A stretch of 8,482 nucleotides of DNA from a virus (taxonomy: Duplodnaviria > Heunggongvirae > Uroviricota > Caudoviricetes), in IMG/VR virus record IMGVR_UViG_2693429728_000003, positions 1 through 8,482 of that record. One strand, written 5' to 3'. Shown here one piece after another: positions 1 to 8,482 of this stretch; the first letter of the stretch is position 1; each line of letters begins with the position of its first letter. Position numbers and translations under genes: made by a program. Below the pieces are notes generated by a model. That model saw nothing but the letters and a program-made list of their open reading frames with translations, made no database searches and had not been told where the DNA came from.

Positions 1-1
1 G

Positions 2-610
2 CTGGCAGGCAAGATGGCGCTGTATGCCGACGTTGAGCCAACGGAGTCCCTGGTGGAACTGGTGAAAAAAGGCCAGAAATTATTCACCTCTATGGAAGTC
101 AGCCCGAAGTTTGCTGATACGGGCAAAGCCTACCTGGTCGGCCTGGCTGCCACTGATGATCCCGCCAGTCTGGGTACGGAAATGCTGACATTCAGCGCCA
201 GTGCAGCCCATAACCCGCTGGCAAACCGCAAGCAGAATCCTGCCAATCTTTTTACCGCTGCAGAGGAAACGGTGATCGAACTGGAAGAAATCCAGGGGGA
301 CAAGCCGTCCCTGTTTGCCCGTGTCACGGCGCTGTTTACCAAAAAAGAGCAGTCAGACGATGCCCGGTTCTCTGATGTGCATAAGGCCGTGGAGCTGGTC
401 GCCACTGAGCAGCAAAACCTGAGTGCGCGCACCGAAAAATCCCTGTCTGAACAGGAAGAACGCCTGTCTGAGCTGGAGACTGCTCTGCAGGAGCAGCAAA
501 CCGCCTTTAACGAACTGGTGAATAAGCTGAGTCATGAAGACAGCCGCCAGGACTACCGCCAGCGTGCAACAGGCGGTAACGCCCCCGCTGACACTCTGAC
601 CAATTGCTGA
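2..610 (+). CDS. O: Capsid scaffolding protein gpO, C-terminal part (5' end lies outside the window)
   Basis: Open frame runs from the window edge with no upstream stop; TGA at 608-610. The translated C-terminus (acidic, coiled-coil-like EQEERLSELETALQEQQ) resembles the P2 gpO scaffold as I recall it, and the gene sits immediately upstream of the major capsid gene as in P2. Confidence 0.8.
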   Translation: MAGKMALYADVEPTESLVELVKKGQKLFTSMEVSPKFADTGKAYLVGLAATDDPASLGTEMLTFSASAAHNPLANRKQNPANLFTAAEETVIELEEIQGDKPSLFARVTALFTKKEQSDDARFSDVHKAVELVATEQQNLSARTEKSLSEQEERLSELETALQEQQTAFNELVNKLSHEDSRQDYRQRATGGNAPADTLTNC

Positions 611-626
611 TGGAGCACAAAACCTG

Positions 627-1685
627 ATGAAGAAGAATACCCGCTTTGCTTTTAACGCTTACCTGCAGCAGCTGGCGCGTCTGAACGGTGTGGCAGTTGA
701 AGAACTGTCCAGCAAGTTCACCGTGGAGCCGTCTGTACAGCAGACGCTGGAAGACCAGATCCAGCAGTCCGCCGCTTTCCTGACGCTGATTAACGTCACG
801 CCTGTGACTGAGCAATCCGGTCAACTGCTGGGGCTGGGTGTTGGCAGCACCATTGCCGGAACCACTGATACCACCGCGAAAGAGCGTGAGCCTGTCGATC
901 CGACGCTGATGGTCGATGTGGAATATAAATGCGAGCAGACCAACTTTGACACGGTGCTGACCTACGCGAAGCTGGACCTGTGGGCGAAGTTTCAGGATTT
1001 CCAGGTGCGTATCCGTAACGCCATCGTGAAACGTCAGGCACTGGACCGCATCATGATCGGCTTTAACGGCGTGAAGCGTGCGAAAACCTCCAACCGCAGC
1101 GAAAACCCGCTGCTGCAGGATGTGAACAAAGGCTGGCTGCAGAAAATCCGTGAGGATGCACCGGATCACGTCATGGGCAGCTCCACCACGGGCGGTGAAA
1201 CCACACCGGGTGCGGTGAAAGTCGGGAAAGGTGGCGAATATGCCAACCTGGACGCAGTGGTGATGGATGCCGTCAATGAGCTTATCGACGTGGTCTACCA
1301 GGACGATGACGATCTGGTGGTGATTTGCGGGCGTGAACTGCTGTCTGACAAGTATTTCCCGCTGGTTAACAAAGAGCAGGAAAACAGTGAAAAACTGGCT
1401 GCCGATATGATCATCAGTCAGAAACGCATGGGTGGCTTGCAGGCCGTGCGTGCACCGTTCTTCCCGCCGAATGCACTGCTGATCACCCGTCTGGATAACC
1501 TGTCCATCTACTGGCAGGAAGACACCCGCCGCCGTTCAGTTATCGACAACCCGAAACGTGACCGGATTGAAAACTTTGAATCCGTTAACGAAGCCTATGT
1601 GGTTGAGGACTACCGCTGTGCCGCACTTGTGGAAAACATCCAGATTGGCGACTTCAGCGCCGCCGCAGCAGAAACCGGAGCGTAA
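627..1685 (+). CDS. N: Major capsid protein gpN
   Basis: 352-aa ORF with ATG at 627 and GGAG at 612-615. Strong recalled similarity to P2 gpN along its length (e.g. RFAFNAYLQQ, LDLWAKFQDFQVRIRNAIVKRQ, LAADMIISQKR, YVVEDY). Position between O and M. Confidence 0.93.
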   Translation: MKKNTRFAFNAYLQQLARLNGVAVEELSSKFTVEPSVQQTLEDQIQQSAAFLTLINVTPVTEQSGQLLGLGVGSTIAGTTDTTAKEREPVDPTLMVDVEYKCEQTNFDTVLTYAKLDLWAKFQDFQVRIRNAIVKRQALDRIMIGFNGVKRAKTSNRSENPLLQDVNKGWLQKIREDAPDHVMGSSTTGGETTPGAVKVGKGGEYANLDAVVMDAVNELIDVVYQDDDDLVVICGRELLSDKYFPLVNKEQENSEKLAADMIISQKRMGGLQAVRAPFFPPNALLITRLDNLSIYWQEDTRRRSVIDNPKRDRIENFESVNEAYVVEDYRCAALVENIQIGDFSAAAAETGA

Positions 1686-1688
1686 TCC

Positions 1689-2339
1689 ATGAGCCTGAGT
1701 CCCGCACGGCAGCATCGCCTGCGCGTTCAGGCTGAACAGGCCGCCCGCGAGGGCGGCAGTGTTCGCCACGCGTCGGGCTATGACCTGATGCTGCTGCAAC
1801 TGGCGGAAGACCGCCGCCGTCTCAAGGGTGTTCAGTCCACGGTCAAAAAAGCGGAAATCAAGGTGGAGCTGCTGCCGAAGTACGCCGCCTGGGCAGAGGG
1901 CGTCCTGGCTGCCGGAGGCACTCAACAGGATGACGTGCTGATGTACGTGATGCTGTGGCGCATTGATGCCGGAGATTATGCCGGGGCGCTGGAGATCGGA
2001 TGTCATGCCCTGCGTCATGGCTGGGTGATGCCACTGGGTAACCGCAATGTGCAGACCGTGCTGGCAGAGGAAATGGCAGACGCGGCGCAGAGCGCAATGC
2101 TTGCCGCCACCGGCTTTGATGCCGATCTGTTGCTGCAGACGCTGGAGCTGACAGACGGTCTGGATATGCCGGACCAGTCACGGGCGCGTCTGCATAAAGC
2201 GATTGGCGCTGTCCTGAGTGAAAGCAATCCGGCTTCCGCCCTTAACCATCTCAACCATGCGTTGCAGCTCGATCCCCGCTGTGGCGTGAAAAAAGACAAA
2301 CAGCAGCTGGAGCGCAGACTGCGCAATGACAGCCGCTGA
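1689..2339 (+). CDS. M: Terminase small (endonuclease) subunit gpM
   Basis: 216-aa ORF starting 4 nt after the N stop. Recalled similarity to P2 gpM (LLPKY, QDDVLMYVMLWRIDAGDYAGALEIG, LELTDGLDMPD, GVKKD). Synteny N-M-L. Confidence 0.87.
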   Translation: MSLSPARQHRLRVQAEQAAREGGSVRHASGYDLMLLQLAEDRRRLKGVQSTVKKAEIKVELLPKYAAWAEGVLAAGGTQQDDVLMYVMLWRIDAGDYAGALEIGCHALRHGWVMPLGNRNVQTVLAEEMADAAQSAMLAATGFDADLLLQTLELTDGLDMPDQSRARLHKAIGAVLSESNPASALNHLNHALQLDPRCGVKKDKQQLERRLRNDSR

Positions 2340-2344
2340 CAGAA

Positions 2345-2369
2345 CGTGCCCCCGCGCACGGGCGGCACG
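2345..2369 (+). other. GC-rich stem-loop in the M-L intergenic region
   Basis: cgtgcc(2345-2350)/ggcacg(2364-2369) outer stem and cccg(2351-2354)/cggg(2359-2362) inner stem around a 4-nt loop, with one bulged C. It is not followed by a U-tract, so not a canonical intrinsic terminator. Confidence 0.3.
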
Positions 2370-2434
2370 GGGTGGCGAAAGGCACAGCCTCATCAAAACC
2401 CCGTCCACCGCCCTCTATTTCAGGAGAAAGCAGC

Positions 2435-2899
2435 ATGAAGTTTGTTGCGCCAGAACAGGCACCGGAACAGGCGGAAATCATCAGAAATACACCGTTCTGG
2501 CCTGATGTGGACCTGTCGGAGTTTCGCAGCGTGATGCGCACTGACGGCACGGTGACGCAGCCGCGTTTAAAGCAGGTTGCGCTGTCGGCAATTTCGGAGG
2601 TCAACGCAGAGCTGTATGAGTTTCGCAGACGCCAGCAGATGCTGGGGTATGCCTCGCTGGCAGAGGTTCCGGCGGAACAGCTGGACGGGAAAAGTGAGCG
2701 CATTCAGCACTATTTCAACGCGGTTTACTGCTGGGCACGCGCCATGCTCAACGAACGATACCAGGACTATGACGCCACGGCATCCGGTGTGAAGCGAGGC
2801 GAGGAACTGGCGGAATCCAGCGGTGATTTGTGGCGTGACGCCCGCTGGGCCATCAGCCGGGTGCAGGATGCGCCGCACTGTACAGTGGAGCTTATCTGA
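2435..2899 (+). CDS. L: Head completion/stabilisation protein gpL
   Basis: ATG at 2435 preceded by AGGAG (2422-2426) at 8-nt spacing; the longer GTG-initiated frame from 2372 has no comparable RBS. Product resembles P2 gpL (NTPFWPD, NAELYEF, DLWRDARWAISRVQ). Stop TGA 2897-2899 overlaps the next start (ATGA). Confidence 0.85.
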   Translation: MKFVAPEQAPEQAEIIRNTPFWPDVDLSEFRSVMRTDGTVTQPRLKQVALSAISEVNAELYEFRRRQQMLGYASLAEVPAEQLDGKSERIQHYFNAVYCWARAMLNERYQDYDATASGVKRGEELAESSGDLWRDARWAISRVQDAPHCTVELI

Positions 2900-3102
2900 T
2901 GAAAGTGCGTGCGCATCAGTATGACACGGTGGACGCGCTTTGCTGGCGTCATTACGGGCGCACGCAGGGTGTCACGGAGCAGGTACTGAAGGCAAATCCG
3001 GGGCTTGCCGAATATGGCCCCTTTTTACCTCACGGGCTGCAGGTGGAGCTGCCGGACATTCCGACCACCACCACCGTGCAGACCGTCCAGCTATGGGACT
3101 GA
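2899..3102 (+). CDS. X: Tail protein gpX (small LysM-like tail component)
   Basis: 67-aa ORF coupled to L by an ATGA overlap. Recalled similarity to P2 gpX (DTVDALCWRHYGRT, ANPGLAE, LPHGLQVELPD). Confidence 0.85.
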   Translation: MKVRAHQYDTVDALCWRHYGRTQGVTEQVLKANPGLAEYGPFLPHGLQVELPDIPTTTTVQTVQLWD

Positions 3103-3105
3103 ATT

Positions 3106-3321
3106 ATGACGCTTGAGCGAATCAGCGCCTTTATCACGTATTGCATCGCCGTCGTGCTGGCCTGGCTGGGCGATTTGTCCATCAAGGATGCCTCAACGCT
3201 GGGCGGCCTGATGATTGGTGTGCTGATGCTGGCTATCAACTGGTACTACAAACACAAAGCCTACCAGCTTCTGCGCGACGGGCAGATCTCGCGGGAGGAC
3301 TATGAATCCATCAATCGTTAA
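3106..3321 (+). CDS. Holin, class II topology (two predicted TMDs), possible pinholin
   Basis: 71-aa product with two hydrophobic segments (ISAFITYCIAVVLAWLG and LGGLMIGVLMLAINWYY, the second containing a GxxxG motif) and a charged C-terminal tail. It lies immediately upstream of, and overlaps by 20 nt, the endolysin gene, at the position of P2 Y. Confidence 0.72.
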   Translation: MTLERISAFITYCIAVVLAWLGDLSIKDASTLGGLMIGVLMLAINWYYKHKAYQLLRDGQISREDYESINR

Positions 3322-3814
3322 ACGCTGCCTTGTCGGGGCCGTGCTGGCTATTGCTGCCACGCTGCCGGGTTTTCAGCAGCTTCACACCTCCGTGGAAGGG
3401 CTGAAACTGATTGCCGATTACGAAGGTTGTCGTCTGCAGCCGTATCAGTGCAGCGCGGGTGTCTGGACCGACGGCATTGGTAATACGTCGGGCGTCATTC
3501 CCGGCAAAACCATTACGGAGCGACAGGCAGCAGAAGGGCTGATCTCCAACGTGCTGCGTGTGGAGCGGGCGCTGGAAAGGTGTGTGAAGCAACAGCCGCC
3601 GCAGAAGGTGTATGACGCGGCGGTGTCGTTTGCCTTCAACGTGGGTACGGGCAATGCCTGCAGTTCCACGCTGGTGAAATTGCTCAATCAGCGGCGCTGG
3701 GCGGATGCGTGCCGACAGTTGCCGCGCTGGGTTTATGTAAAAGGTGTGTTTAATCAGGGGCTGGATAACCGCCGTGCGCGGGAGATGGCCTGGTGTTTAC
3801 AGGGAGCAAACTGA
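3302..3814 (+). CDS. SAR endolysin (T4/P1 lysozyme family, glycoside hydrolase 24-like)
   Basis: 170-aa product. N-terminal weakly hydrophobic Gly/Ala-rich segment (CLVGAVLAIAATLPGF) typical of a signal-anchor-release domain. Catalytic signature E41-x8-C50-x5-T56 (YEGCRLQPYQCSAGVWTDG) plus Cys9 and Cys43, matching the P1 Lyz arrangement. GGAGG at 3294-3298 before ATG 3302. Confidence 0.85.
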   Translation: MNPSIVKRCLVGAVLAIAATLPGFQQLHTSVEGLKLIADYEGCRLQPYQCSAGVWTDGIGNTSGVIPGKTITERQAAEGLISNVLRVERALERCVKQQPPQKVYDAAVSFAFNVGTGNACSSTLVKLLNQRRWADACRQLPRWVYVKGVFNQGLDNRRAREMAWCLQGAN

Positions 3815-3815
3815 A

Positions 3816-4193
3816 ATGAAAAAGAAATTAATCAGCGGACTGTTTCTGATGTTATGGATGGCGCTGTTAATCGCAGCAATTGTGTATCCGCAGGGGATTT
3901 TTCCGGTACTGGAAGCGTCCGGCGTTTGGGTAGCCTGTTTGCTGACATGGGCGGTAATTCCGGTAGCACTGGCTGCGTTAATTAAGAATGGCCCGCTCTG
4001 GCAGGAGTTAAGGGCATCTTTGCTGAAGACAATTACCCGAAAAGAAAACGTATTTACCAGTTGGGTGATGCGATTGCTGATTGTTGTAAGTCTCGCCTGG
4101 ACGGGGTGGGCTATTACCCTGGTCTTTTATCTACTGACCGTTATTGCCTTCTGGATCACCCGTAATCAGATGGCGCAACAGGTAGCCGCATGA
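3816..4193 (+). CDS. lysA: LysA-like polytopic membrane protein (lysis timing/regulation)
   Basis: ATG at 3816 with GGGAG about 9 nt upstream; 125 aa with about 4 predicted TM helices. Located between the endolysin and spanin genes as P2 lysA. The track ORF from 3744 overlaps the endolysin and lacks an RBS. Confidence 0.62.
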   Translation: MKKKLISGLFLMLWMALLIAAIVYPQGIFPVLEASGVWVACLLTWAVIPVALAALIKNGPLWQELRASLLKTITRKENVFTSWVMRLLIVVSLAWTGWAITLVFYLLTVIAFWITRNQMAQQVAA

Positions 4194-4618
4194 ACCGGTT
4201 GCTGCTGGTTGTGCTGGCGTTATTACTGGCGGCGCTGGGCTGGCAGACGTGGCGGATGGCTGATGCCAGCCAGACCATTAGCACGCAGGCAGACGAGCTG
4301 CAGAGCAAAAGCCAGGCACTGGCAAAGAGCAACAGCCAGCTTATCAGCCTGTCCATTCTGACTGAAACCAATAACCGGGAGCAGGCGCGGCTCTATGCCG
4401 AAGCAGAACAGACCAGCGCGCTGCTGAGACAACGACAACACCGGATCGAGGAACTGAAACGTGAGAACGAGGATTTACGCCGCTGGGCTGATACTCCTTT
4501 GCCTGCTGACATTATCCGGCTGCGGGAACGTCCGACGCTCACCGGAGGTGCAGCTTACCGTCAGTGGTTGTCCGCGAGTGACGCCGTGTCGGCTGGATCA
4601 GGCAGCGCCGCGCACTAA
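4190..4618 (+). CDS. lysB: LysB-like inner-membrane spanin (Rz equivalent)
   Basis: ATGA overlap with lysA. 142-aa product with one N-terminal TM helix (LLLVVLALLLAALGW) followed by a long charged, helical periplasmic region (ELQSKSQALAKSNSQL, RIEELKRENEDLRRW), the typical i-spanin architecture. Confidence 0.72.
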   Translation: MNRLLLVVLALLLAALGWQTWRMADASQTISTQADELQSKSQALAKSNSQLISLSILTETNNREQARLYAEAEQTSALLRQRQHRIEELKRENEDLRRWADTPLPADIIRLRERPTLTGGAAYRQWLSASDAVSAGSGSAAH

Positions 4619-4751
4619 CGGTGATCTGAACGCGTTGCTGGATGAAACGGAGGCCGCCTGGGCGGTCTGTGCAGACAAAGTGGACATGATTATTGCGTGT
4701 CAGGAGCGAAACAGTGAACAAACCACAATCCCTGCGCCACGCCCTCAATAA
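4461..4751 (+). CDS. lysC: LysC-like outer-membrane lipoprotein spanin (Rz1 equivalent)
   Basis: +1-frame ORF starting inside lysB. GTG at 4461 preceded by GAGGA (4448-4452) at 8-nt spacing. Signal peptide with lipobox LSGC (Cys21) and a proline-rich C-terminus (TIPAPRPQ). It overlaps the 3' part of lysB and extends past it (overlapped rather than fully embedded). Confidence 0.7.
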   Translation: MRTRIYAAGLILLCLLTLSGCGNVRRSPEVQLTVSGCPRVTPCRLDQAAPRTNGDLNALLDETEAAWAVCADKVDMIIACQERNSEQTTIPAPRPQ

Positions 4752-5145
4752 AGCGGTGCCTTATGTCCGCAATAACCCGGACAAACTGCATCTGTTTGTG
4801 GATAACGGTTCGCTGGTTGCCACGGGGGCCAGCTCCATGTCGTGGGAGTACCGTTACACCCTGAACGCGGTGATTGAGGATTTCAGCGGCGACCAGAATC
4901 TGCTGATGGCCCCGGTTTTGCTGTGGCTGCGGGATAACCAGCCCGATGCCATCAATAACCCGGCGTTACGGGAAAAGTTATTCACCTTTGAGGTGGATAT
5001 TCTGCGCAATGATGTCTGTGATATCAGCCTGAACCTGCAACTGACGGAGCGTGTGCTGGTCAGCACTGACGGCAGTGTGTCGAGCGTTGAAGCGATAACG
5101 GAACCCGATGAACCTGAAGAAATGTGGACGGTGAAACGTGGCTGA
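4714..5145 (+). CDS. R: Tail completion protein gpR
   Basis: Recalled similarity to P2 gpR (LHLFVDNGS, RYTLNAVIEDFSGD, PVLLWLRDNQPD, SLNLQLTERVLVS). Preferred start is GTG 4714, preceded by AGGAG (4702-4706) at 7-nt spacing; the track start at 4693 is a TTG without an RBS. Confidence 0.83.
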   Translation: MNKPQSLRHALNKAVPYVRNNPDKLHLFVDNGSLVATGASSMSWEYRYTLNAVIEDFSGDQNLLMAPVLLWLRDNQPDAINNPALREKLFTFEVDILRNDVCDISLNLQLTERVLVSTDGSVSSVEAITEPDEPEEMWTVKRG

Positions 5146-5581
5146 ATTGCAGAAAGTGGACGACTGGCTGAGTGCCTTACTGGCGAATCTGGAGCCAGCT
5201 GCAAGAAGTCGCATGATGCGCCAACTGGCACAGGAGCTGCGCCGGACACAGCAGCAAAACATCAGGATGCAGCGCAATCCAGATGGCAGCAGCTATGAAC
5301 CTCGACGGGTAACAGCACGCAGTAAAAAGGGGCGCATCAAACGTCAGATGTTTGCAAAGCTGCGCACCACAAAATACCTGAAAACTGCAGCTAGCGCCGA
5401 TTCTGCCAGCGTGCAGTTTGAAGGTAAGGTGCAGCACATTGCCCGTGTTCACCATTACGGCCTGCGTGATCGCGTCAGTCGAAAAGGTATTTATACCATC
5501 TATGCGAAAAGGCAGTTATTAGGTTTTAATGTCCAATCTATTGAGTTAATTGAAAGAATGTTCATTAAAAACCTAACTTGA
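5138..5581 (+). CDS. S: Tail completion protein gpS
   Basis: 147-aa ORF overlapping the R stop by 8 nt, GTG start with GGTG 4 nt upstream. Recalled similarity to P2 gpS (DDWLSALLANLEPAAR, QNIRMQRNPDGSSYEPR, IARVHHYGLRDRVSR). The last ~25 codons lie in AT-rich DNA (see findings). Confidence 0.83.
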   Translation: MAELQKVDDWLSALLANLEPAARSRMMRQLAQELRRTQQQNIRMQRNPDGSSYEPRRVTARSKKGRIKRQMFAKLRTTKYLKTAASADSASVQFEGKVQHIARVHHYGLRDRVSRKGIYTIYAKRQLLGFNVQSIELIERMFIKNLT

Positions 5582-5584
5582 TTT

Positions 5585-6604
5585 TTATTTGTTTTCAATT
5601 GAGTTAGATATAGATAGGAATGTGTCCCCTATTTCTATAGATAGTTGTTTAATTAAATTCATGAAAATTAAATTCTCTTCGTTGCAGTCATTTTTCAGTA
5701 GACAGCACGTTGATTGAGTAAGACTAAGGGCTGTAGCATGTGCAGGGTCAACTAATCCGAAATTACTTGGACCTATGTTGATGACGTTCTTCAGGTGATG
5801 GGGTAGTGACAAGCTATTAGTGATTGTTTTTATATTTACATGGATGTTTTGGCATGCCCATTTAAAATATGGGCGCATGTGATCTAATTTAACTTCTTTT
5901 TCAATTGATTTAAAGCTAGCTTTGTGTTTCTTATCAGTTAAAAATGGTGTGGCCCAACCATATTGCGAATCAAAACTTCTGCCATATGTTTTAATGGCTT
6001 TATCGAACAAGTCTGTTAATTCTCTGGCCTCTTCATTACTGGGCCCTTTCTCTTGAAGCCTGCTTTCATACTTTTTATGAGACATCATTAGATAATAGCT
6101 ATCATAAATTTCATGTGCTAAAAATATTTCTGAGCATTTAGGACCATGCTTGTCGATGAAATGTAGTGTTACATTTGTTTCATGCAGTGCTCTCCATCTT
6201 GCATGGGCTGCGTCAGGAAATCCATTTTTTAATAGACATAAAATCTCGTTAGAAATTGCACATGCCTTTGCGTGTAATCTAATTAGTAATTGCAAATGGT
6301 TGTTTGTGTCGGTGTCTTTATCTTGTTGTAAGCTTGTACTATATTTAGAACCTTGATTAATACATAACTCTAACAACAACTCTAATAATCCAAAACCATC
6401 TCTCCAAATATTAATATGTCTTTTTATGAAATTTTGATGTTCTTGTTCATTTTGGGCCAGTAATTCTGCTTTTTTTTCTTTAAATTCCAATATGTATTCA
6501 TTTGCTTTGAAGTCTATGAACTCCCAGTATAGCTTTTCAAAATTTTCTCTGGTTGCATCGGGAAGACTGTTTTTATTTGAGCTTAACCATTCTTTAAAAT
6601 CCAT
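5585..6604 (-). CDS. Hypothetical protein encoded in the AT-rich S-V island; candidate moron (possible defense or superinfection-exclusion function)
   Basis: Single uninterrupted 339-aa reverse-strand ORF that fills the AT-rich island. Start ATG (reverse complement of 6602-6604) preceded by AGGGGG about 6 nt upstream on the minus strand. No TM segments or Walker motif; predicted largely helical. Contains an R-x4-H motif (RWRALH, aa 136-141). I recognise no family from sequence alone. Confidence 0.78.
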   Translation of the reverse strand: MDFKEWLSSNKNSLPDATRENFEKLYWEFIDFKANEYILEFKEKKAELLAQNEQEHQNFIKRHINIWRDGFGLLELLLELCINQGSKYSTSLQQDKDTDTNNHLQLLIRLHAKACAISNEILCLLKNGFPDAAHARWRALHETNVTLHFIDKHGPKCSEIFLAHEIYDSYYLMMSHKKYESRLQEKGPSNEEARELTDLFDKAIKTYGRSFDSQYGWATPFLTDKKHKASFKSIEKEVKLDHMRPYFKWACQNIHVNIKTITNSLSLPHHLKNVINIGPSNFGLVDPAHATALSLTQSTCCLLKNDCNEENLIFMNLIKQLSIEIGDTFLSISNSIENK

Positions 6605-6618
6605 TGTGTTCCCCTATT

Positions 6619-6636
6619 TGTACCATGTTTTATACA
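6619..6636 (+). promoter_or_regulatory. TGT-N12-ACA dyad, candidate Ogr/Delta-type activator site of the V late promoter
   Basis: Exact TGT(6619-6621)-N12-ACA(6634-6636) in the 78-bp gap upstream of V, where P2 places late promoter PV. P2-family late promoters carry such a dyad centred near -55. Geometry is imperfect: centre 6627.5 would put the TSS at or just inside the annotated V start. Confidence 0.3.
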
Positions 6637-6650
6637 ACGAACTGTAAGCG

Positions 6651-6679
6651 ATTATATGGTTTTTTTCATTCATATTTAA
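6651..6679 (-). promoter_or_regulatory. Candidate sigma70-type promoter for the island ORF
   Basis: On the minus strand, a perfect TATAAT (reverse complement of 6651-6656) with TTAAAT 17 nt upstream (reverse complement of 6674-6679). Predicted TSS near 6644, giving a ~40-nt leader to the ATG at 6604. Confidence 0.35.
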
Positions 6680-6682
6680 TAT

Positions 6683-7261
6683 ATGGACAAAAATCTAACA
6701 GAAATCATGCGCCTTATCACCAACCTGATCCGCACTGGTGTAGTCACCGAAGTGGACCGGGAGAACTGGCTTTGCCGGGTGAAAACGGGCGAGCTTGAAA
6801 CTAACTGGATCAGTTGGCTGACGCTGCGTGCCGGGAATGCCAGGACATGGTGGCGACCATCGGAAGGTGAACAGGTGGTGCTGCTGAGTCTGGGCGGCAA
6901 TCTGGAAACCGCCTTTGCGTTACCCGCCATCTATTCGAATCAGTTCGCGCCACCGTCGACGTCGGCGGACGCCTGCGTGACAGAACATCCTGACGGTGGC
7001 TGGTTTGAATACGAACCCGCCACCGGGCGCTGGTATGTCAGGGGCATCAAATCAATGGTCATTGAGGCCGCTGACAACATCACCATGAAAACCAGTGAGT
7101 TTGTACTGGAGGCTGACCGCACGCGCATTAACAGTGAAGTGGTGATCAATGGTGGCGTTACCCAGGGCGGCGGAGCGATGAGTTCTAACGGGATCGTGGT
7201 TGATGCGCATCAGCATACTGGCGTCCTGAAAGGCGGCGATACAACCGGAGGCCCGGTATGA
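6683..7261 (+). CDS. V: Baseplate spike/assembly protein gpV
   Basis: 192-aa ORF with recalled similarity to P2 gpV (NLIRTGVVTEVD, RAGNARTWWRPSEGEQV, ETAFALPAIYS, glycine-rich C-terminus HQHTGV). No clear SD before ATG 6683; in-frame ATG at 6707 is an alternative start. Confidence 0.85.
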   Translation: MDKNLTEIMRLITNLIRTGVVTEVDRENWLCRVKTGELETNWISWLTLRAGNARTWWRPSEGEQVVLLSLGGNLETAFALPAIYSNQFAPPSTSADACVTEHPDGGWFEYEPATGRWYVRGIKSMVIEAADNITMKTSEFVLEADRTRINSEVVINGGVTQGGGAMSSNGIVVDAHQHTGVLKGGDTTGGPV

Positions 7262-7617
7262 CGCTTTATATCGGGATGAACAATACCAGCGGCAAAGTCA
7301 TTACTGATATTGACCATCTGCGCCAGTCGGTGCGGGACATTCTGCTGACACCGCAGGGTAGCCGTATTGCCCGTCGTGAATATGGTTCCCTGCTGTCGGC
7401 ACTGATAGACCAGCCACAAAATCCGGCATTACGTCTGCAGGTCATGTCGGCAGTGTATGTGGCGCTTAGTCGTTGGGAGCCACGGCTGACGCTGGATTCC
7501 ATCACCATCAACAGCAATTTTGACGGTTCAATGATGGTGGAGCTGACCGGGCGGCGTAATAACGGTGTGCCTGTTTCCCTTTCCGTATCAACAGGAGCAG
7601 AGAATGGCAGTGATTGA
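7258..7617 (+). CDS. W: Baseplate protein gpW (GPW/gp25 family)
   Basis: 119-aa ORF coupled to V by an ATGA overlap. Recalled similarity to P2 gpW (SVRDILLTPQGSRIARREYGS, LSRWEPRL). Confidence 0.87.
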   Translation: MTLYIGMNNTSGKVITDIDHLRQSVRDILLTPQGSRIARREYGSLLSALIDQPQNPALRLQVMSAVYVALSRWEPRLTLDSITINSNFDGSMMVELTGRRNNGVPVSLSVSTGAENGSD

Positions 7618-8482
7618 TCTTTCGCAGTTGCCTGCACCGCAGATTGTGGATGTGCCGGACTTTGAGACGCTGCTTGCCGAACGCAAGGCAGAATTTGTGG
7701 CACTTCATCCGAAAGATGAGCAGGAAGCAGTGATGCGTACGCTGGAACTTGAATCTGAACCCGTCACCAAATTGTTGCAGGAGAACGCTTACCGTGAGTT
7801 GCTTCTGCGCCAGCGCATTAACGAAGCCGCGCAGGCTGTGATGGTGGCTTACGCGATGGGCGGCGATCTTGACCAGCTCGCTGCCAACTACAACGTGAAA
7901 CGCCTGACGGTGACGCCTGCTGATAATGACGCTGTGCCACCCGTTGCGGCTGTGATGGAAAGCGATGAAGCGTTACGCCTGCGTGTGCCTGCAGCCTTTG
8001 AAGGGCTTTCAGTTGCGGGGCCAACTGCAGCTTATGAATTTCATGCCCGAAGCGCCGACGGTCGGGTGGCGGATGCCAGTGCAACCAGCCCGGCACCTGC
8101 AGAGGTGGTGCTGACTGTCCTTAGCCGCGAAGGCAATGGAACTGCAGAAAAAGACCTGCTGGACGTGGTGGAAAAAGCTCTGAACAGTGAGAACGTCCGC
8201 CCAGTGGCTGACCGTCTTACGGTTCGCAGTGCAGAAATCATCCCGTATCGCGTGGAAGCCACCATTTTTCTATATCCGGGACCGGAAGCAGAGCCGGTAA
8301 TGGCAGCGGCAAAAGCCAGCCTGCAGAAGTACATCGCCAGTCAGACGCGTCTTGGTCGGGATATTCGCCGTAGCGCCATCTTTGCCGCCCTGCATGTTGA
8401 GGGGGTGCAGCGTGTGGAGCTGGCTTCTCCTCTGGCGGATGTGGTCCTGAACAAAACACAGGCGGCATCATGTACGCAGTGG
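7604..8482 (+). CDS. J: Baseplate assembly protein gpJ, N-terminal part (3' end lies outside the window)
   Basis: Frame opens at ATG 7604 (AGGAG at 7593-7597) and stays open to the window end; translation MAVIDLSQLPAPQIVDVPDFE ... GRDIRRSAIFAALHVEGVQRVELASPLADVVLN strongly resembles P2 gpJ. It is absent from the ORF track, presumably because no stop falls in the window. Confidence 0.87.
   Translation, partial: MAVIDLSQLPAPQIVDVPDFETLLAERKAEFVALHPKDEQEAVMRTLELESEPVTKLLQENAYRELLLRQRINEAAQAVMVAYAMGGDLDQLAANYNVKRLTVTPADNDAVPPVAAVMESDEALRLRVPAAFEGLSVAGPTAAYEFHARSADGRVADASATSPAPAEVVLTVLSREGNGTAEKDLLDVVEKALNSENVRPVADRLTVRSAEIIPYRVEATIFLYPGPEAEPVMAAAKASLQKYIASQTRLGRDIRRSAIFAALHVEGVQRVELASPLADVVLNKTQAASCTQW

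Follow-up and report, generated by a model that had tools for sequence, protein, structure and literature searches.

A probable P1 Lyz-type SAR endolysin in the lysis cassette of a P2-like prophage

A weakly hydrophobic transmembrane domain holds SAR endolysins at the membrane until depolarisation sets them free (PMC6139136; PMC6116005). In Lyz of phage P1, the catalytic cysteine is locked in a disulfide until activation (PMC3556154), and R21 of phage 21 and RrrD of DLP12 are SAR endolysins whose partner in the holin-endolysin-spanin cassette is a pinholin (PMC6139136). Both R21 (3HDE, 3HDF) and RrrD (4ZPU) are GH24 endolysins that match the endolysin described here in sequence and in fold. 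A further GH24 endolysin, Lyz of phage Era103 (Lyz103), has a cysteine, C12, in its N-terminal hydrophobic segment. The inhibitory disulfide that cages Era103 Lyz is reportedly opened by this segment cysteine, according to work of Kuty et al. from 2010. Activation of R21 is said, after Sun et al. in 2009, to combine a steric with a conformational change. Once out of the membrane, its SAR helix packs anew into the body of the enzyme. In the R21 sequence aligned here, the N-terminal hydrophobic segment contains no cysteine and the triad has an Asp. For P1 Lyz, specific roles of Cys13, Cys44 and Cys51 were reportedly assigned by Xu et al. in 2005 (Science 307:113).

We analysed a window of 8,482 nt (positions 1 to 8,482 of IMG/VR record IMGVR_UViG_2693429728_000003). 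The endolysin gene (3302..3814, plus strand) has an ATG start codon, with a GGAGG 3 nt 5′ of it, and encodes a GH24 (T4-type) lysozyme of 170 amino acids whose N terminus bears a SAR-like segment. This is the reading frame described in the first-pass annotation, whose residue numbers we verified codon by codon. The Pfam Phage_lysozyme profile (PF00959) matches the protein over profile positions 2–125 of 125 (score 137.3 bits, threshold 22.3 bits; E = 4.6e-40), the phrog_7 endolysin profile matches at 3.1e-68, and the closest sequence match in the PDB is P1 Lyz (1XJT, 2e-26; 1XJU, 5e-25); a second PDB sequence search brought nothing further. Two antisense ORFs (3311-3592 and 3445-3687, both minus strand) are unsupported, and both lie within the conserved coding gene. 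The product of 3302..3814 is best explained as the endolysin of a prophage of the P2-like (Peduoviridae) kind, a GH24 (T4-type) muramidase in which Cys50 takes the place of the catalytic Asp.

Profile matches of the neighbouring genes, all on the plus strand, place the endolysin within a complete P2/HP1-type cassette of the P2 late operon, made up of an HP1-family holin, the lysozyme, a LysA-like protein, LysB and LysC. The holin gene (3106..3321), whose end overlaps the endolysin start by 20 nt, encodes 71 amino acids with two predicted transmembrane segments and matches the HP1 holin family (PF16080, 4.3e-09; phrog_20, 1.9e-26). PGAP labels this product 'HP1 family phage holin', and PF04971, the family of the phage 21 S holin, matches it below threshold (23.2 bits; cut-off 26). 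Downstream of the endolysin, a 125-amino-acid LysA-like polytopic membrane protein is encoded at 3816..4193 (NF038378, 3.4e-35; phrog_162; hydrophobic segments); its place in the P2 lysis cassette suggests that it is probably a lysis-timing factor. The Rz-like inner-membrane spanin LysB (4190..4618; TIGR03495 phage_LysB, 1e-51; phrog_89) is followed by the Rz1-like outer-membrane lipoprotein spanin LysC (4461..4751; NF038368 P2_Rz1, 1.5e-36; PF23793, 2.1e-15), whose gene overlaps lysB. The lipobox LTLSGC is seen in the LysC translation; the LysC start codon is uncertain, with related records beginning at the equivalents of 4503 or 4578. An Rfam scan of the window gave no match, promoter-like and terminator-like sites in the window were not more frequent than in shuffled sequence, and the DUF5677 ORF had no match in PADLOC or NCBIfam.

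The first-pass annotation had proposed a triad E41-x8-C50-x5-T56 with the layout of P1 Lyz. In a MAFFT alignment, E41, C50 and T56 share columns with E42, C51 and T57 of P1 Lyz and with E11, D20 and T26 of T4 lysozyme. Given this register and the PF00959 match, the triad is no chance pattern, and C50 is at the catalytic position, on P1 C51 and T4 D20. In the same alignment C43 falls on P1 C44, the site of the P1 caging partner, and a further alignment sets C9 on P1 C13. The motif E41-G-C43-x6-C50-x5-T56 (3422..3469, plus strand; codons E41, 3422-3424; C43, 3428-3430; C50, 3449-3451; T56, 3467-3469) would hold the catalytic and caging residues, and the proposed activating thiol, equivalent to P1 Lyz Cys13, is encoded at 3326..3328 (plus strand). 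The P1 Lyz residues used for the comparison (Cys13, Glu42, Cys44, Cys51 and Thr57) agree with the translated P1 lyz gene. The extra cysteines noted at positions 9 and 43 are both present, but the protein has seven cysteines in total (9, 43, 50, 94, 120, 137 and 165) rather than three. Overall, alignment with P1 Lyz, phage 21 R and Erwinia phage Lyz103 favours the P1 Lyz-type layout, and each sequence-level test proposed in the first-pass annotation gave a favourable result.

The likeness to P1 Lyz thus extends over the GH24 fold, the E-x8-C-x5-T triad, the Cys two residues past Glu and the single N-proximal segment Cys; each protein has seven cysteines, five of them in the same alignment columns. 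The two enzymes nevertheless differ in several respects. Their identity is only 36-39%, P1 Lyz carries an 11-residue insertion following the NxG motif, and the segment of our endolysin is rich in Ala, Leu and Val with a Pro-Gly-Phe-Gln-Gln tail, rather than Gly-rich. C9 comes immediately after K7-R8, whereas P1 Cys13 is nine residues past Lys4. Finally, our endolysin gene adjoins the holin gene in a contiguous P2-type cassette, whereas P1 lyz adjoins lydD/lydE and is separate from the main holin gene of P1, lydA. Another known relative is Lys of the Haemophilus phages HP1 and HP2 (Peduoviridae, Hpunavirus), which are P2-like phages with an HP1-family holin directly upstream. HP2 Lys has C4 in a hydrophobic N-terminal segment, followed by E40-G-C42-x6-C49-x5-T55. 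HP1/HP2 Lys is, however, about 34% identical to our endolysin, has a shorter and more Ala-rich N-terminal segment, and has a P1-like insertion after NVGC.

A nearly identical protein is already in the literature. KP12 peg.319 of a Klebsiella phage (UNI73726.1, OM835953.1) shares 167 of 170 residues (98%) with our endolysin; the cassette around it and its coordinates are also the same. In the KP12 paper it was modelled onto 1XJT with a TM-align score of 0.83 and has a conserved SAR domain (PMC9902359). There the cysteines and disulfide control are undiscussed, and activity was assessed by spot test only, with lytic activity regarded by the authors themselves as unverified (PMC9902359). The purified band of 18.6 kDa cannot decide cleavage, since the tag position is, so far as we could see, not given, and the primers listed look wrong, the forward primer being that of another gene (PMC9902359). 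A protein 98% identical to ours has thus been published as P1-Lyz-like, and the class is known rather than new.

The likeness to P1 Lyz extends to the predicted fold. An AF2 model of the endolysin (pLDDT 76, pTM 0.77) was compared with the PDB using Foldseek, and the best 22 matches were all GH24 lysozymes. The top solved structure both by sequence and by fold was 1XJT, full-length active P1 Lyz, with a TM score of 0.77; the score for 1XJU, the inactive secreted form, was 0.57. Model confidence fell below a pLDDT of 50 at residues 1-9 and at the catalytic loop 41-65, the very regions in question. Since the input alignment was shallow (30 sequences, at least 56% identity), we did not count the low confidence at 41-65 as evidence for a metamorphic region like that of P1 Lyz.

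The N-terminal SAR-like segment, recognised by hydrophobicity and conservation, consists of K7-R8 followed by C9-F24 (CLVGAVLAIAATLPGF; 3320..3373, plus strand). After K7-R8 the chain is uncharged for 23 residues (9-31), of which 13 (C9-L21), or 16 if counted up to F24, form a strongly hydrophobic core; Gly, Ala and Thr make up 8 of the 16 residues C9-F24. The description of this segment as SAR-type is therefore sound insofar as it is uncharged, hydrophobic, half Gly/Ala/Thr and furnished with a single Cys after K7-R8. Over 13 residues, the Hessa sum of the core CLVGAVLAIAATL is -1.3, which falls among the values for the segments of P1 Lyz (-2.5), Era103 Lyz (-0.1) and R21 (+0.1). Over a 19-residue window, however, the sum of +5.5 resembles that of Sec signal peptides (+2.4 to +8.1) more closely than that of the three characterised SAR domains (+0.5 to +1.2). 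This gap is due to P22, Q25 and Q26, the 13-residue cores being comparable. In more distant members of the family the core runs into an Asp (…LMPDF…), so that only about 14 residues in a row are uncharged. We rejected a lipoprotein signal, as a lipobox is lacking and C9, preceded by V-K-R, opens the hydrophobic stretch instead of closing it; a Tat signal was rejected because the twin-arginine motif is absent.

Conservation was assessed in a family set of 67 distinct sequences, taken from 80 viral contigs, with 60-100% identity. E41, C43, C50 and T56 are invariant in all 67, as is C9, while the adjoining residues 10-13 vary; K7 and R8 are likewise invariant in the family. All seven cysteines are invariant across the set, so the invariance of C9 is not special to C9; one natural variant outside the set, P0089, has C43G. 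In an alignment of 14 sequences that are 36-56% identical to the endolysin, 14 columns are invariant, and C9 is the only such column of residues 1-40 besides M1. Every distant relative in this identity range that has an N-terminal hydrophobic segment carries a single Cys near its N-proximal end (13/13). Among the 150 nearest 50%-identity representatives, a small sample for the co-occurrence of segment and Cys in distant lineages, 12 combine C43 and C50 with a hydrophobic N-terminal segment, and all 12 have one N-proximal Cys in it; a segment of this kind is absent from all 34 proteins that have C50 and lack C43. Some 20 of the nearest representatives possess C43 and C50 and no N-terminal segment, indicating that the Cys pair alone is not diagnostic of caging. 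A scan of viral contigs and a profile search with diverged SAR-type relatives yielded little beyond the endolysin's own family (59% identity and above). The single segment Cys proposed by analogy with P1 Lyz is thus constant in the family and recurs in every segment-bearing diverged relative, which argues that the segment is kept and not cleaved. The pattern of C9 conservation fits disulfide isomerisation of the P1 type.

Several of these properties would also be expected of an ordinary signal peptide, cleaved by signal peptidase I to yield a soluble periplasmic lysozyme that is restrained by C43-C50 or by something else. A 13-residue core preceded by K7-R8 makes for typical n- and h-regions, the 19-residue hydrophobicity is within the range of OmpA, PhoA, MalE, DsbA and Bla, an A-I-A motif is present, and the core of distant members ends in Pro-Asp. 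We nevertheless consider cleavage unlikely. The sole A-x-A (A16-I17-A18) is inside the hydrophobic core, 7 residues past R8, and the sequence after the P22-G23 break offers no small -3/-1 pair: by manual inspection, the candidate sites there show an unfavourable L, H or F at -3 or, in relatives, a Pro at +1. Moreover, an A-x-A is also found within the P1 Lyz segment and within that of R21, and neither P1 Lyz nor R21 is known to be cleaved. Cleavage would also discard C9, the one segment residue conserved across the 36-56%-identical relatives, and would leave six cysteines, with no spare thiol for uncaging C50.

If the segment is retained, the endolysin might still be activated mainly by a conformational change, as in phage 21 R, with structural disulfides and a catalytic Cys but no regulatory isomerisation. 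The sequence and fold matches to R21 (3HDE) and DLP12 RrrD (4ZPU) are good as well, the four further invariant cysteines suggest structural disulfides, and the segment-less relatives with C43 and C50, about 20 in number, are soluble. Yet R21, in the sequence aligned here, has a catalytic Asp and no segment Cys, whereas the endolysin reproduces the P1 pattern residue by residue. Every relative with a hydrophobic N-terminal segment together with C43 and C50 has one segment Cys, which is hard to explain if that residue has no role, and the odd cysteine count is consistent with three disulfides and a single free thiol whichever state the protein is in. We regard mainly conformational control as improbable. 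Caging of the Era103 type, with an inhibitory disulfide on either side of the catalytic Glu and an Asp kept in the triad, is far less credible still. Era103 Lyz is homologous, has its segment Cys at C12, and shares the Cys two residues past Glu. However, its C42 and C45 flank the catalytic Glu in C42-E43-G44-C45, with D52 retained, as opposed to Y40-E41-G42-C43 and C50 in our endolysin. With no Cys before Glu and a Cys at the catalytic position, the endolysin refutes this arrangement at the sequence level.

We conclude that the endolysin is likely to be a P1 Lyz-type SAR enzyme under disulfide-isomerisation control, carried by a P2-like prophage. By homology with P1 Lyz, we infer uncleaved export through Sec, release upon depolarisation, and a swap from C43-C50 to C9-C43. 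In such a scheme, K7-R8 and C9-F24 would serve as a type II signal anchor that engages the Sec translocon and stays uncleaved, and the oxidising system of the periplasm would link C43 to the catalytic C50 in the tethered form, caging the active site while C9 lies buried where the bilayer meets the cytoplasm. Triggering of the neighbouring HP1-family holin would collapse the proton-motive force; slow spontaneous release of the segment is a further possibility. The weakly hydrophobic segment would then exit the membrane, and the C9 thiol would attack C43-C50 to form C9-C43 and free C50. The refolded endolysin would degrade the murein, after which the LysB/LysC spanins would disrupt the outer membrane.

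The enterobacterial P2-like family might represent a minimal variant of the P1 mechanism, with a wider disulfide reshuffle, or with a segment intermediate between a SAR domain and a signal peptide that escapes cleavage. This idea stems from the releasable anchor of only about 13 strongly hydrophobic residues, the activating Cys fixed on the cytoplasmic edge right after the invariant Lys-Arg, and the seven invariant cysteines, which leave room for three disulfides and one free thiol. We think it rather doubtful; if true, such a variant would depart from the simple three-cysteine switch of P1 Lyz.

Of 5426 complete E. coli genomes, 1102 (~20%) contain the endolysin region, as do many Klebsiella phages. 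The endolysin is an ordinary addition to a known class of self-caging phage lysis enzymes, in a prophage that is very common in E. coli and Klebsiella. The mechanism of P1 Lyz was worked out two decades ago, and the endolysin raises no new question about it. A P1 Lyz-type assignment would nonetheless be more specific than the label that PGAP gives the protein in E. coli, which is just 'lysozyme'. For antibacterial expression, toxicity and activity would be set by the N-terminal segment and the redox state. If the P1 Lyz-type reading is true, a common prophage bears a self-exporting lysozyme that is disulfide-caged and fired by membrane depolarisation, which would help to explain lysis of such lysogens upon membrane de-energisation.

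The endolysin (lysozyme) gene at 3302-3814 on the plus strand is intact (170 codons and a stop), with a GGAGG three bases 5′ of its ATG and its first 20 bases shared with the end of the upstream gene. The product begins MNPSIVKRCLVGAVLAIAATLPGFQQLHTSVEGLKLIADYEGCRLQPYQCSAGVWTDG and has cysteines at positions 9, 43, 50, 94, 120, 137 and 165. It matches PF00959 (Phage_lysozyme) across the whole profile (137 bits, where the curated cut-off is 22.3; E 4.6e-40) and PHROG 7 ‘endolysin’ (3.1e-68), and the PGAP label for the gene is plain ‘lysozyme’. We conclude with near certainty that the protein is a GH24 endolysin. The protein clusters to which it belongs comprise thousands of sequences, drawn from Escherichia, Klebsiella, Citrobacter, Salmonella, Pantoea, Enterobacter, Serratia and others. 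Near 3779-3793, at the 3′ end of the gene, 1-nt deletions of at least two kinds within short G runs (cGGGag, ctGGtg) have fused the endolysin (residues 1 to ~161) to LysA in dozens of homologues, giving 296-aa proteins; in further homologues, a deletion links endolysin codon ~155 with the tape-measure gene or tail gene D. These fused or joined forms (database homologues P0012, P0024, P0053, P0121 and P0122 are examples) look to be either degenerate prophage alleles or artefacts of assembly, unlike the intact gene in the window.

The first-pass annotation had proposed that this protein is a SAR endolysin with the cysteine arrangement of P1 Lyz, possibly under disulfide-isomerisation control. 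The residue numbers involved (C9, E41, C43, C50 and T56) proved exact when the codons were checked on the DNA. We aligned the protein with P1 Lyz (translated from NC_005856), the Erwinia phage endolysin Era103 Lyz (NC_009014), the phage 21 endolysin R21 and T4 lysozyme. E41, C50 and T56 share columns with E42, C51 and T57 of P1 Lyz and with E11, D20 and T26 of T4 lysozyme; C43 falls on P1 C44 and, in an alignment of 14 sequences, C9 falls on P1 C13. The protein thus has the triad and cysteine layout of P1 Lyz column by column, and both alignment-based attempts at refutation left the proposal standing. We rejected an Era103-type arrangement, since Era103 Lyz has C42-E43-G-C45 and D52, and an R21-type arrangement, since the aligned R21 sequence has an Asp in the triad and no Cys in its N-terminal segment.

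Among solved structures, P1 Lyz gave the best sequence matches (active form 1XJT, 2e-26; inactive secreted form 1XJU, 5e-25), with R21 and the DLP12 endolysin RrrD at 1e-17. The best structural match of an AlphaFold2 model (mean pLDDT 76, pTM 0.77) was the full-length active form, 1XJT (TM 0.77), compared with 0.57 for 1XJU and 0.66 for R21. Model pLDDT was 75-97 except at residues 1-9 and 41-65, where it fell below 50. The latter stretch is the catalytic E-C-C-T loop (3422-3496), which in P1 Lyz is the stretch that changes its fold from the inactive to the active structure; its low pLDDT may be a mere depth effect of a shallow alignment.

Sequence evidence that the N-terminal segment is a SAR domain is mixed. 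In favour of this identity, 23 uncharged residues follow K7-R8, a basic pair that does not vary in the family. On the Hessa scale, the 13-residue core, CLVGAVLAIAATL, sums to -1.3, within the range of P1 Lyz (-2.5), Era103 Lyz (-0.1) and R21 (+0.1), and eight of the 16 residues from C9 to F24 are Gly, Ala or Thr. Over 19 residues, however, the segment scores +5.5, as Sec signal peptides do (+2.4 to +8.1) and the three known SAR domains do not (+0.5 to +1.2), because it ends P-G-F-Q-Q. An A-I-A motif inside the hydrophobic core and an Asp after the core in 60%-identical relatives (…ALMPDF…) likewise argue for a cleavable signal peptide and against SAR, although neither the window protein nor its relatives have a small -3/-1 pair after the helix-breaking Pro-Gly. 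A-x-A motifs are also found inside the P1 and R21 segments. A lipoprotein or Tat signal was rejected, as the segment contains no lipobox and no Tat motif.

Once cleaved, a signal peptide is lost, and a Cys within it would not be expected to be conserved. Across 80 viral contigs, which yielded 67 distinct sequences of 60-100% identity, C9 is invariant and positions 10-13 vary (L/S/A/V/T, V/I/A/Q, G/A and A/V/T, respectively); within-family conservation alone does not single it out, because all seven cysteines are invariant there. Across 14 sequences 36-56% identical to the window protein, P1 Lyz included, the invariant columns are M1, C9, E41, C43, Y48, C50, A52, T56, G58, G60, N113, G115, G153 and E161, leaving C9 as the sole conserved position besides the start in the N-terminal 40 residues. 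From clusters at 50% identity, we surveyed the 150 nearest representatives for a segment above a hydrophobicity threshold directly before the catalytic domain. Twelve C43+C50 proteins, including two chimeras of the query family itself, have such a segment, and in all 12 it contains one Cys and no more, near its N-proximal end. Three more proteins just below the threshold share this pattern, and only three lack the segment Cys, all with N-termini cut short in a way that suggests a miscalled start. None of the 34 representatives with the catalytic Cys but without C43 has a hydrophobic segment; two Asp-type proteins have one, with a Cys in one case and without in the other. The samples are small and the lineages not independent; still, the conservation pattern is as the P1 mechanism would predict and is hard to square with a cleaved signal. 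We consider a cleavable signal peptide improbable, and give purely conformational control of a SAR domain a similarly slim chance.

About 20 close representatives have C43 and C50 without an N-terminal segment and are soluble, presumably holin-dependent enzymes. Hence, the Cys pair alone is not diagnostic, a caution also raised for phiCbK (PMC3556154). Many GH24 relatives, P0163, P0167, P0175, P0190 and P0193 among them, keep E-G-C-x6-C-x5-T with no N-terminal hydrophobic segment and are presumably cytoplasmic; in some of them, the C-terminus bears a long extension (200-340 aa).

The window corresponds to the late region of a P2-like (Peduoviridae) prophage. Escherichia phage 500465-1 (Wadgaonvirus) and many Klebsiella P2-like phages match it at 96-97% identity, and of 5426 complete E. 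coli genomes, 1102 contain the region. The end of scaffold gpO, capsid gpN, terminase gpM, head completion gpL and tail X are followed by an HP1-family holin (71 aa; 3106-3321), the lysozyme, a LysA-like polytopic membrane protein (125 aa; 3816-4193), LysB (4190-4618) overlapping LysC, tail genes R and S, and baseplate genes V, W and J. Two TMDs are predicted in the holin, the second with a GxxxG-like motif, and its C-terminus is highly charged. Beside its HP1-family match, it scores below threshold against the phage 21 S (pinholin) family (23.2 bits; cut-off 26) and, unlike S21, has no dual-start motif. The LysA-like protein (3816-4193 in the window, 4316-4693 in the related record L001) is labelled ‘endolysin’ in RefSeq NC_049342 and PHROG 162; it contains no muralytic domain, and the label looks like a carry-over from its neighbour's annotation. 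Between S and V, the P2 ‘orf30’ position, lies an AT-rich insert (31-37% GC against 55-60% around it; flanks to about 6680) with a 339-aa DUF5677 ORF on the minus strand (5585-6604), opposite to the surrounding genes. For this ORF, searches gave a match to PHROG 27456 (unknown function) and nothing in PADLOC or NCBIfam. The insert is missing from the nearest phage records, and other E. coli prophages have a DUF6216 gene or nothing at this site, indicating a variable cargo spot.

Both the general SAR paradigm (PMC6139136, PMC6116005) and the caging of the catalytic Cys in P1 Lyz (PMC3556154) have been described. In the mechanism we propose, a C43-C50 disulfide would form and cage the catalytic thiol. 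The HP1-family holin would then collapse the proton-motive force, the segment would leave the bilayer, and C9 would attack the caging disulfide, forming C9-C43 and liberating C50. Once refolded, the enzyme would degrade murein, with LysB/LysC completing the outer-membrane step. The specific residue roles in P1 Lyz were reportedly established by Xu et al. in 2005. As far as sequence evidence reaches, the first-pass interpretation is supported, and we consider P1-type SAR and disulfide-isomerisation control of this endolysin likely.

P1 Lyz is the closest characterised relative (36-39% identity), with the same layout. The differences are modest: the window anchor is shorter and Ala/Leu-rich, with the Cys directly after Lys-Arg; the P1-type insertion is absent; and the gene, unlike P1 lyz, sits in a contiguous P2/HP1-type cassette. 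The pattern recurs (C4, E40, C42, C49 and T55) in HP2 Lys, whose phage is a distant member of the Peduoviridae that shares the holin family. KP12.peg.319, the endolysin of Klebsiella phage KP12, is a 98%-identical orthologue at the same cassette position. The publication describing it (PMC9902359) reports a conserved SAR domain and structural similarity to P1 Lyz (TM-align 0.83 to 1XJT), and makes no mention of its cysteines. Given the layout shared with P1 Lyz and the prior publication of KP12.peg.319, the window endolysin would add a very abundant new member to a known regulatory class rather than represent a new kind of system.
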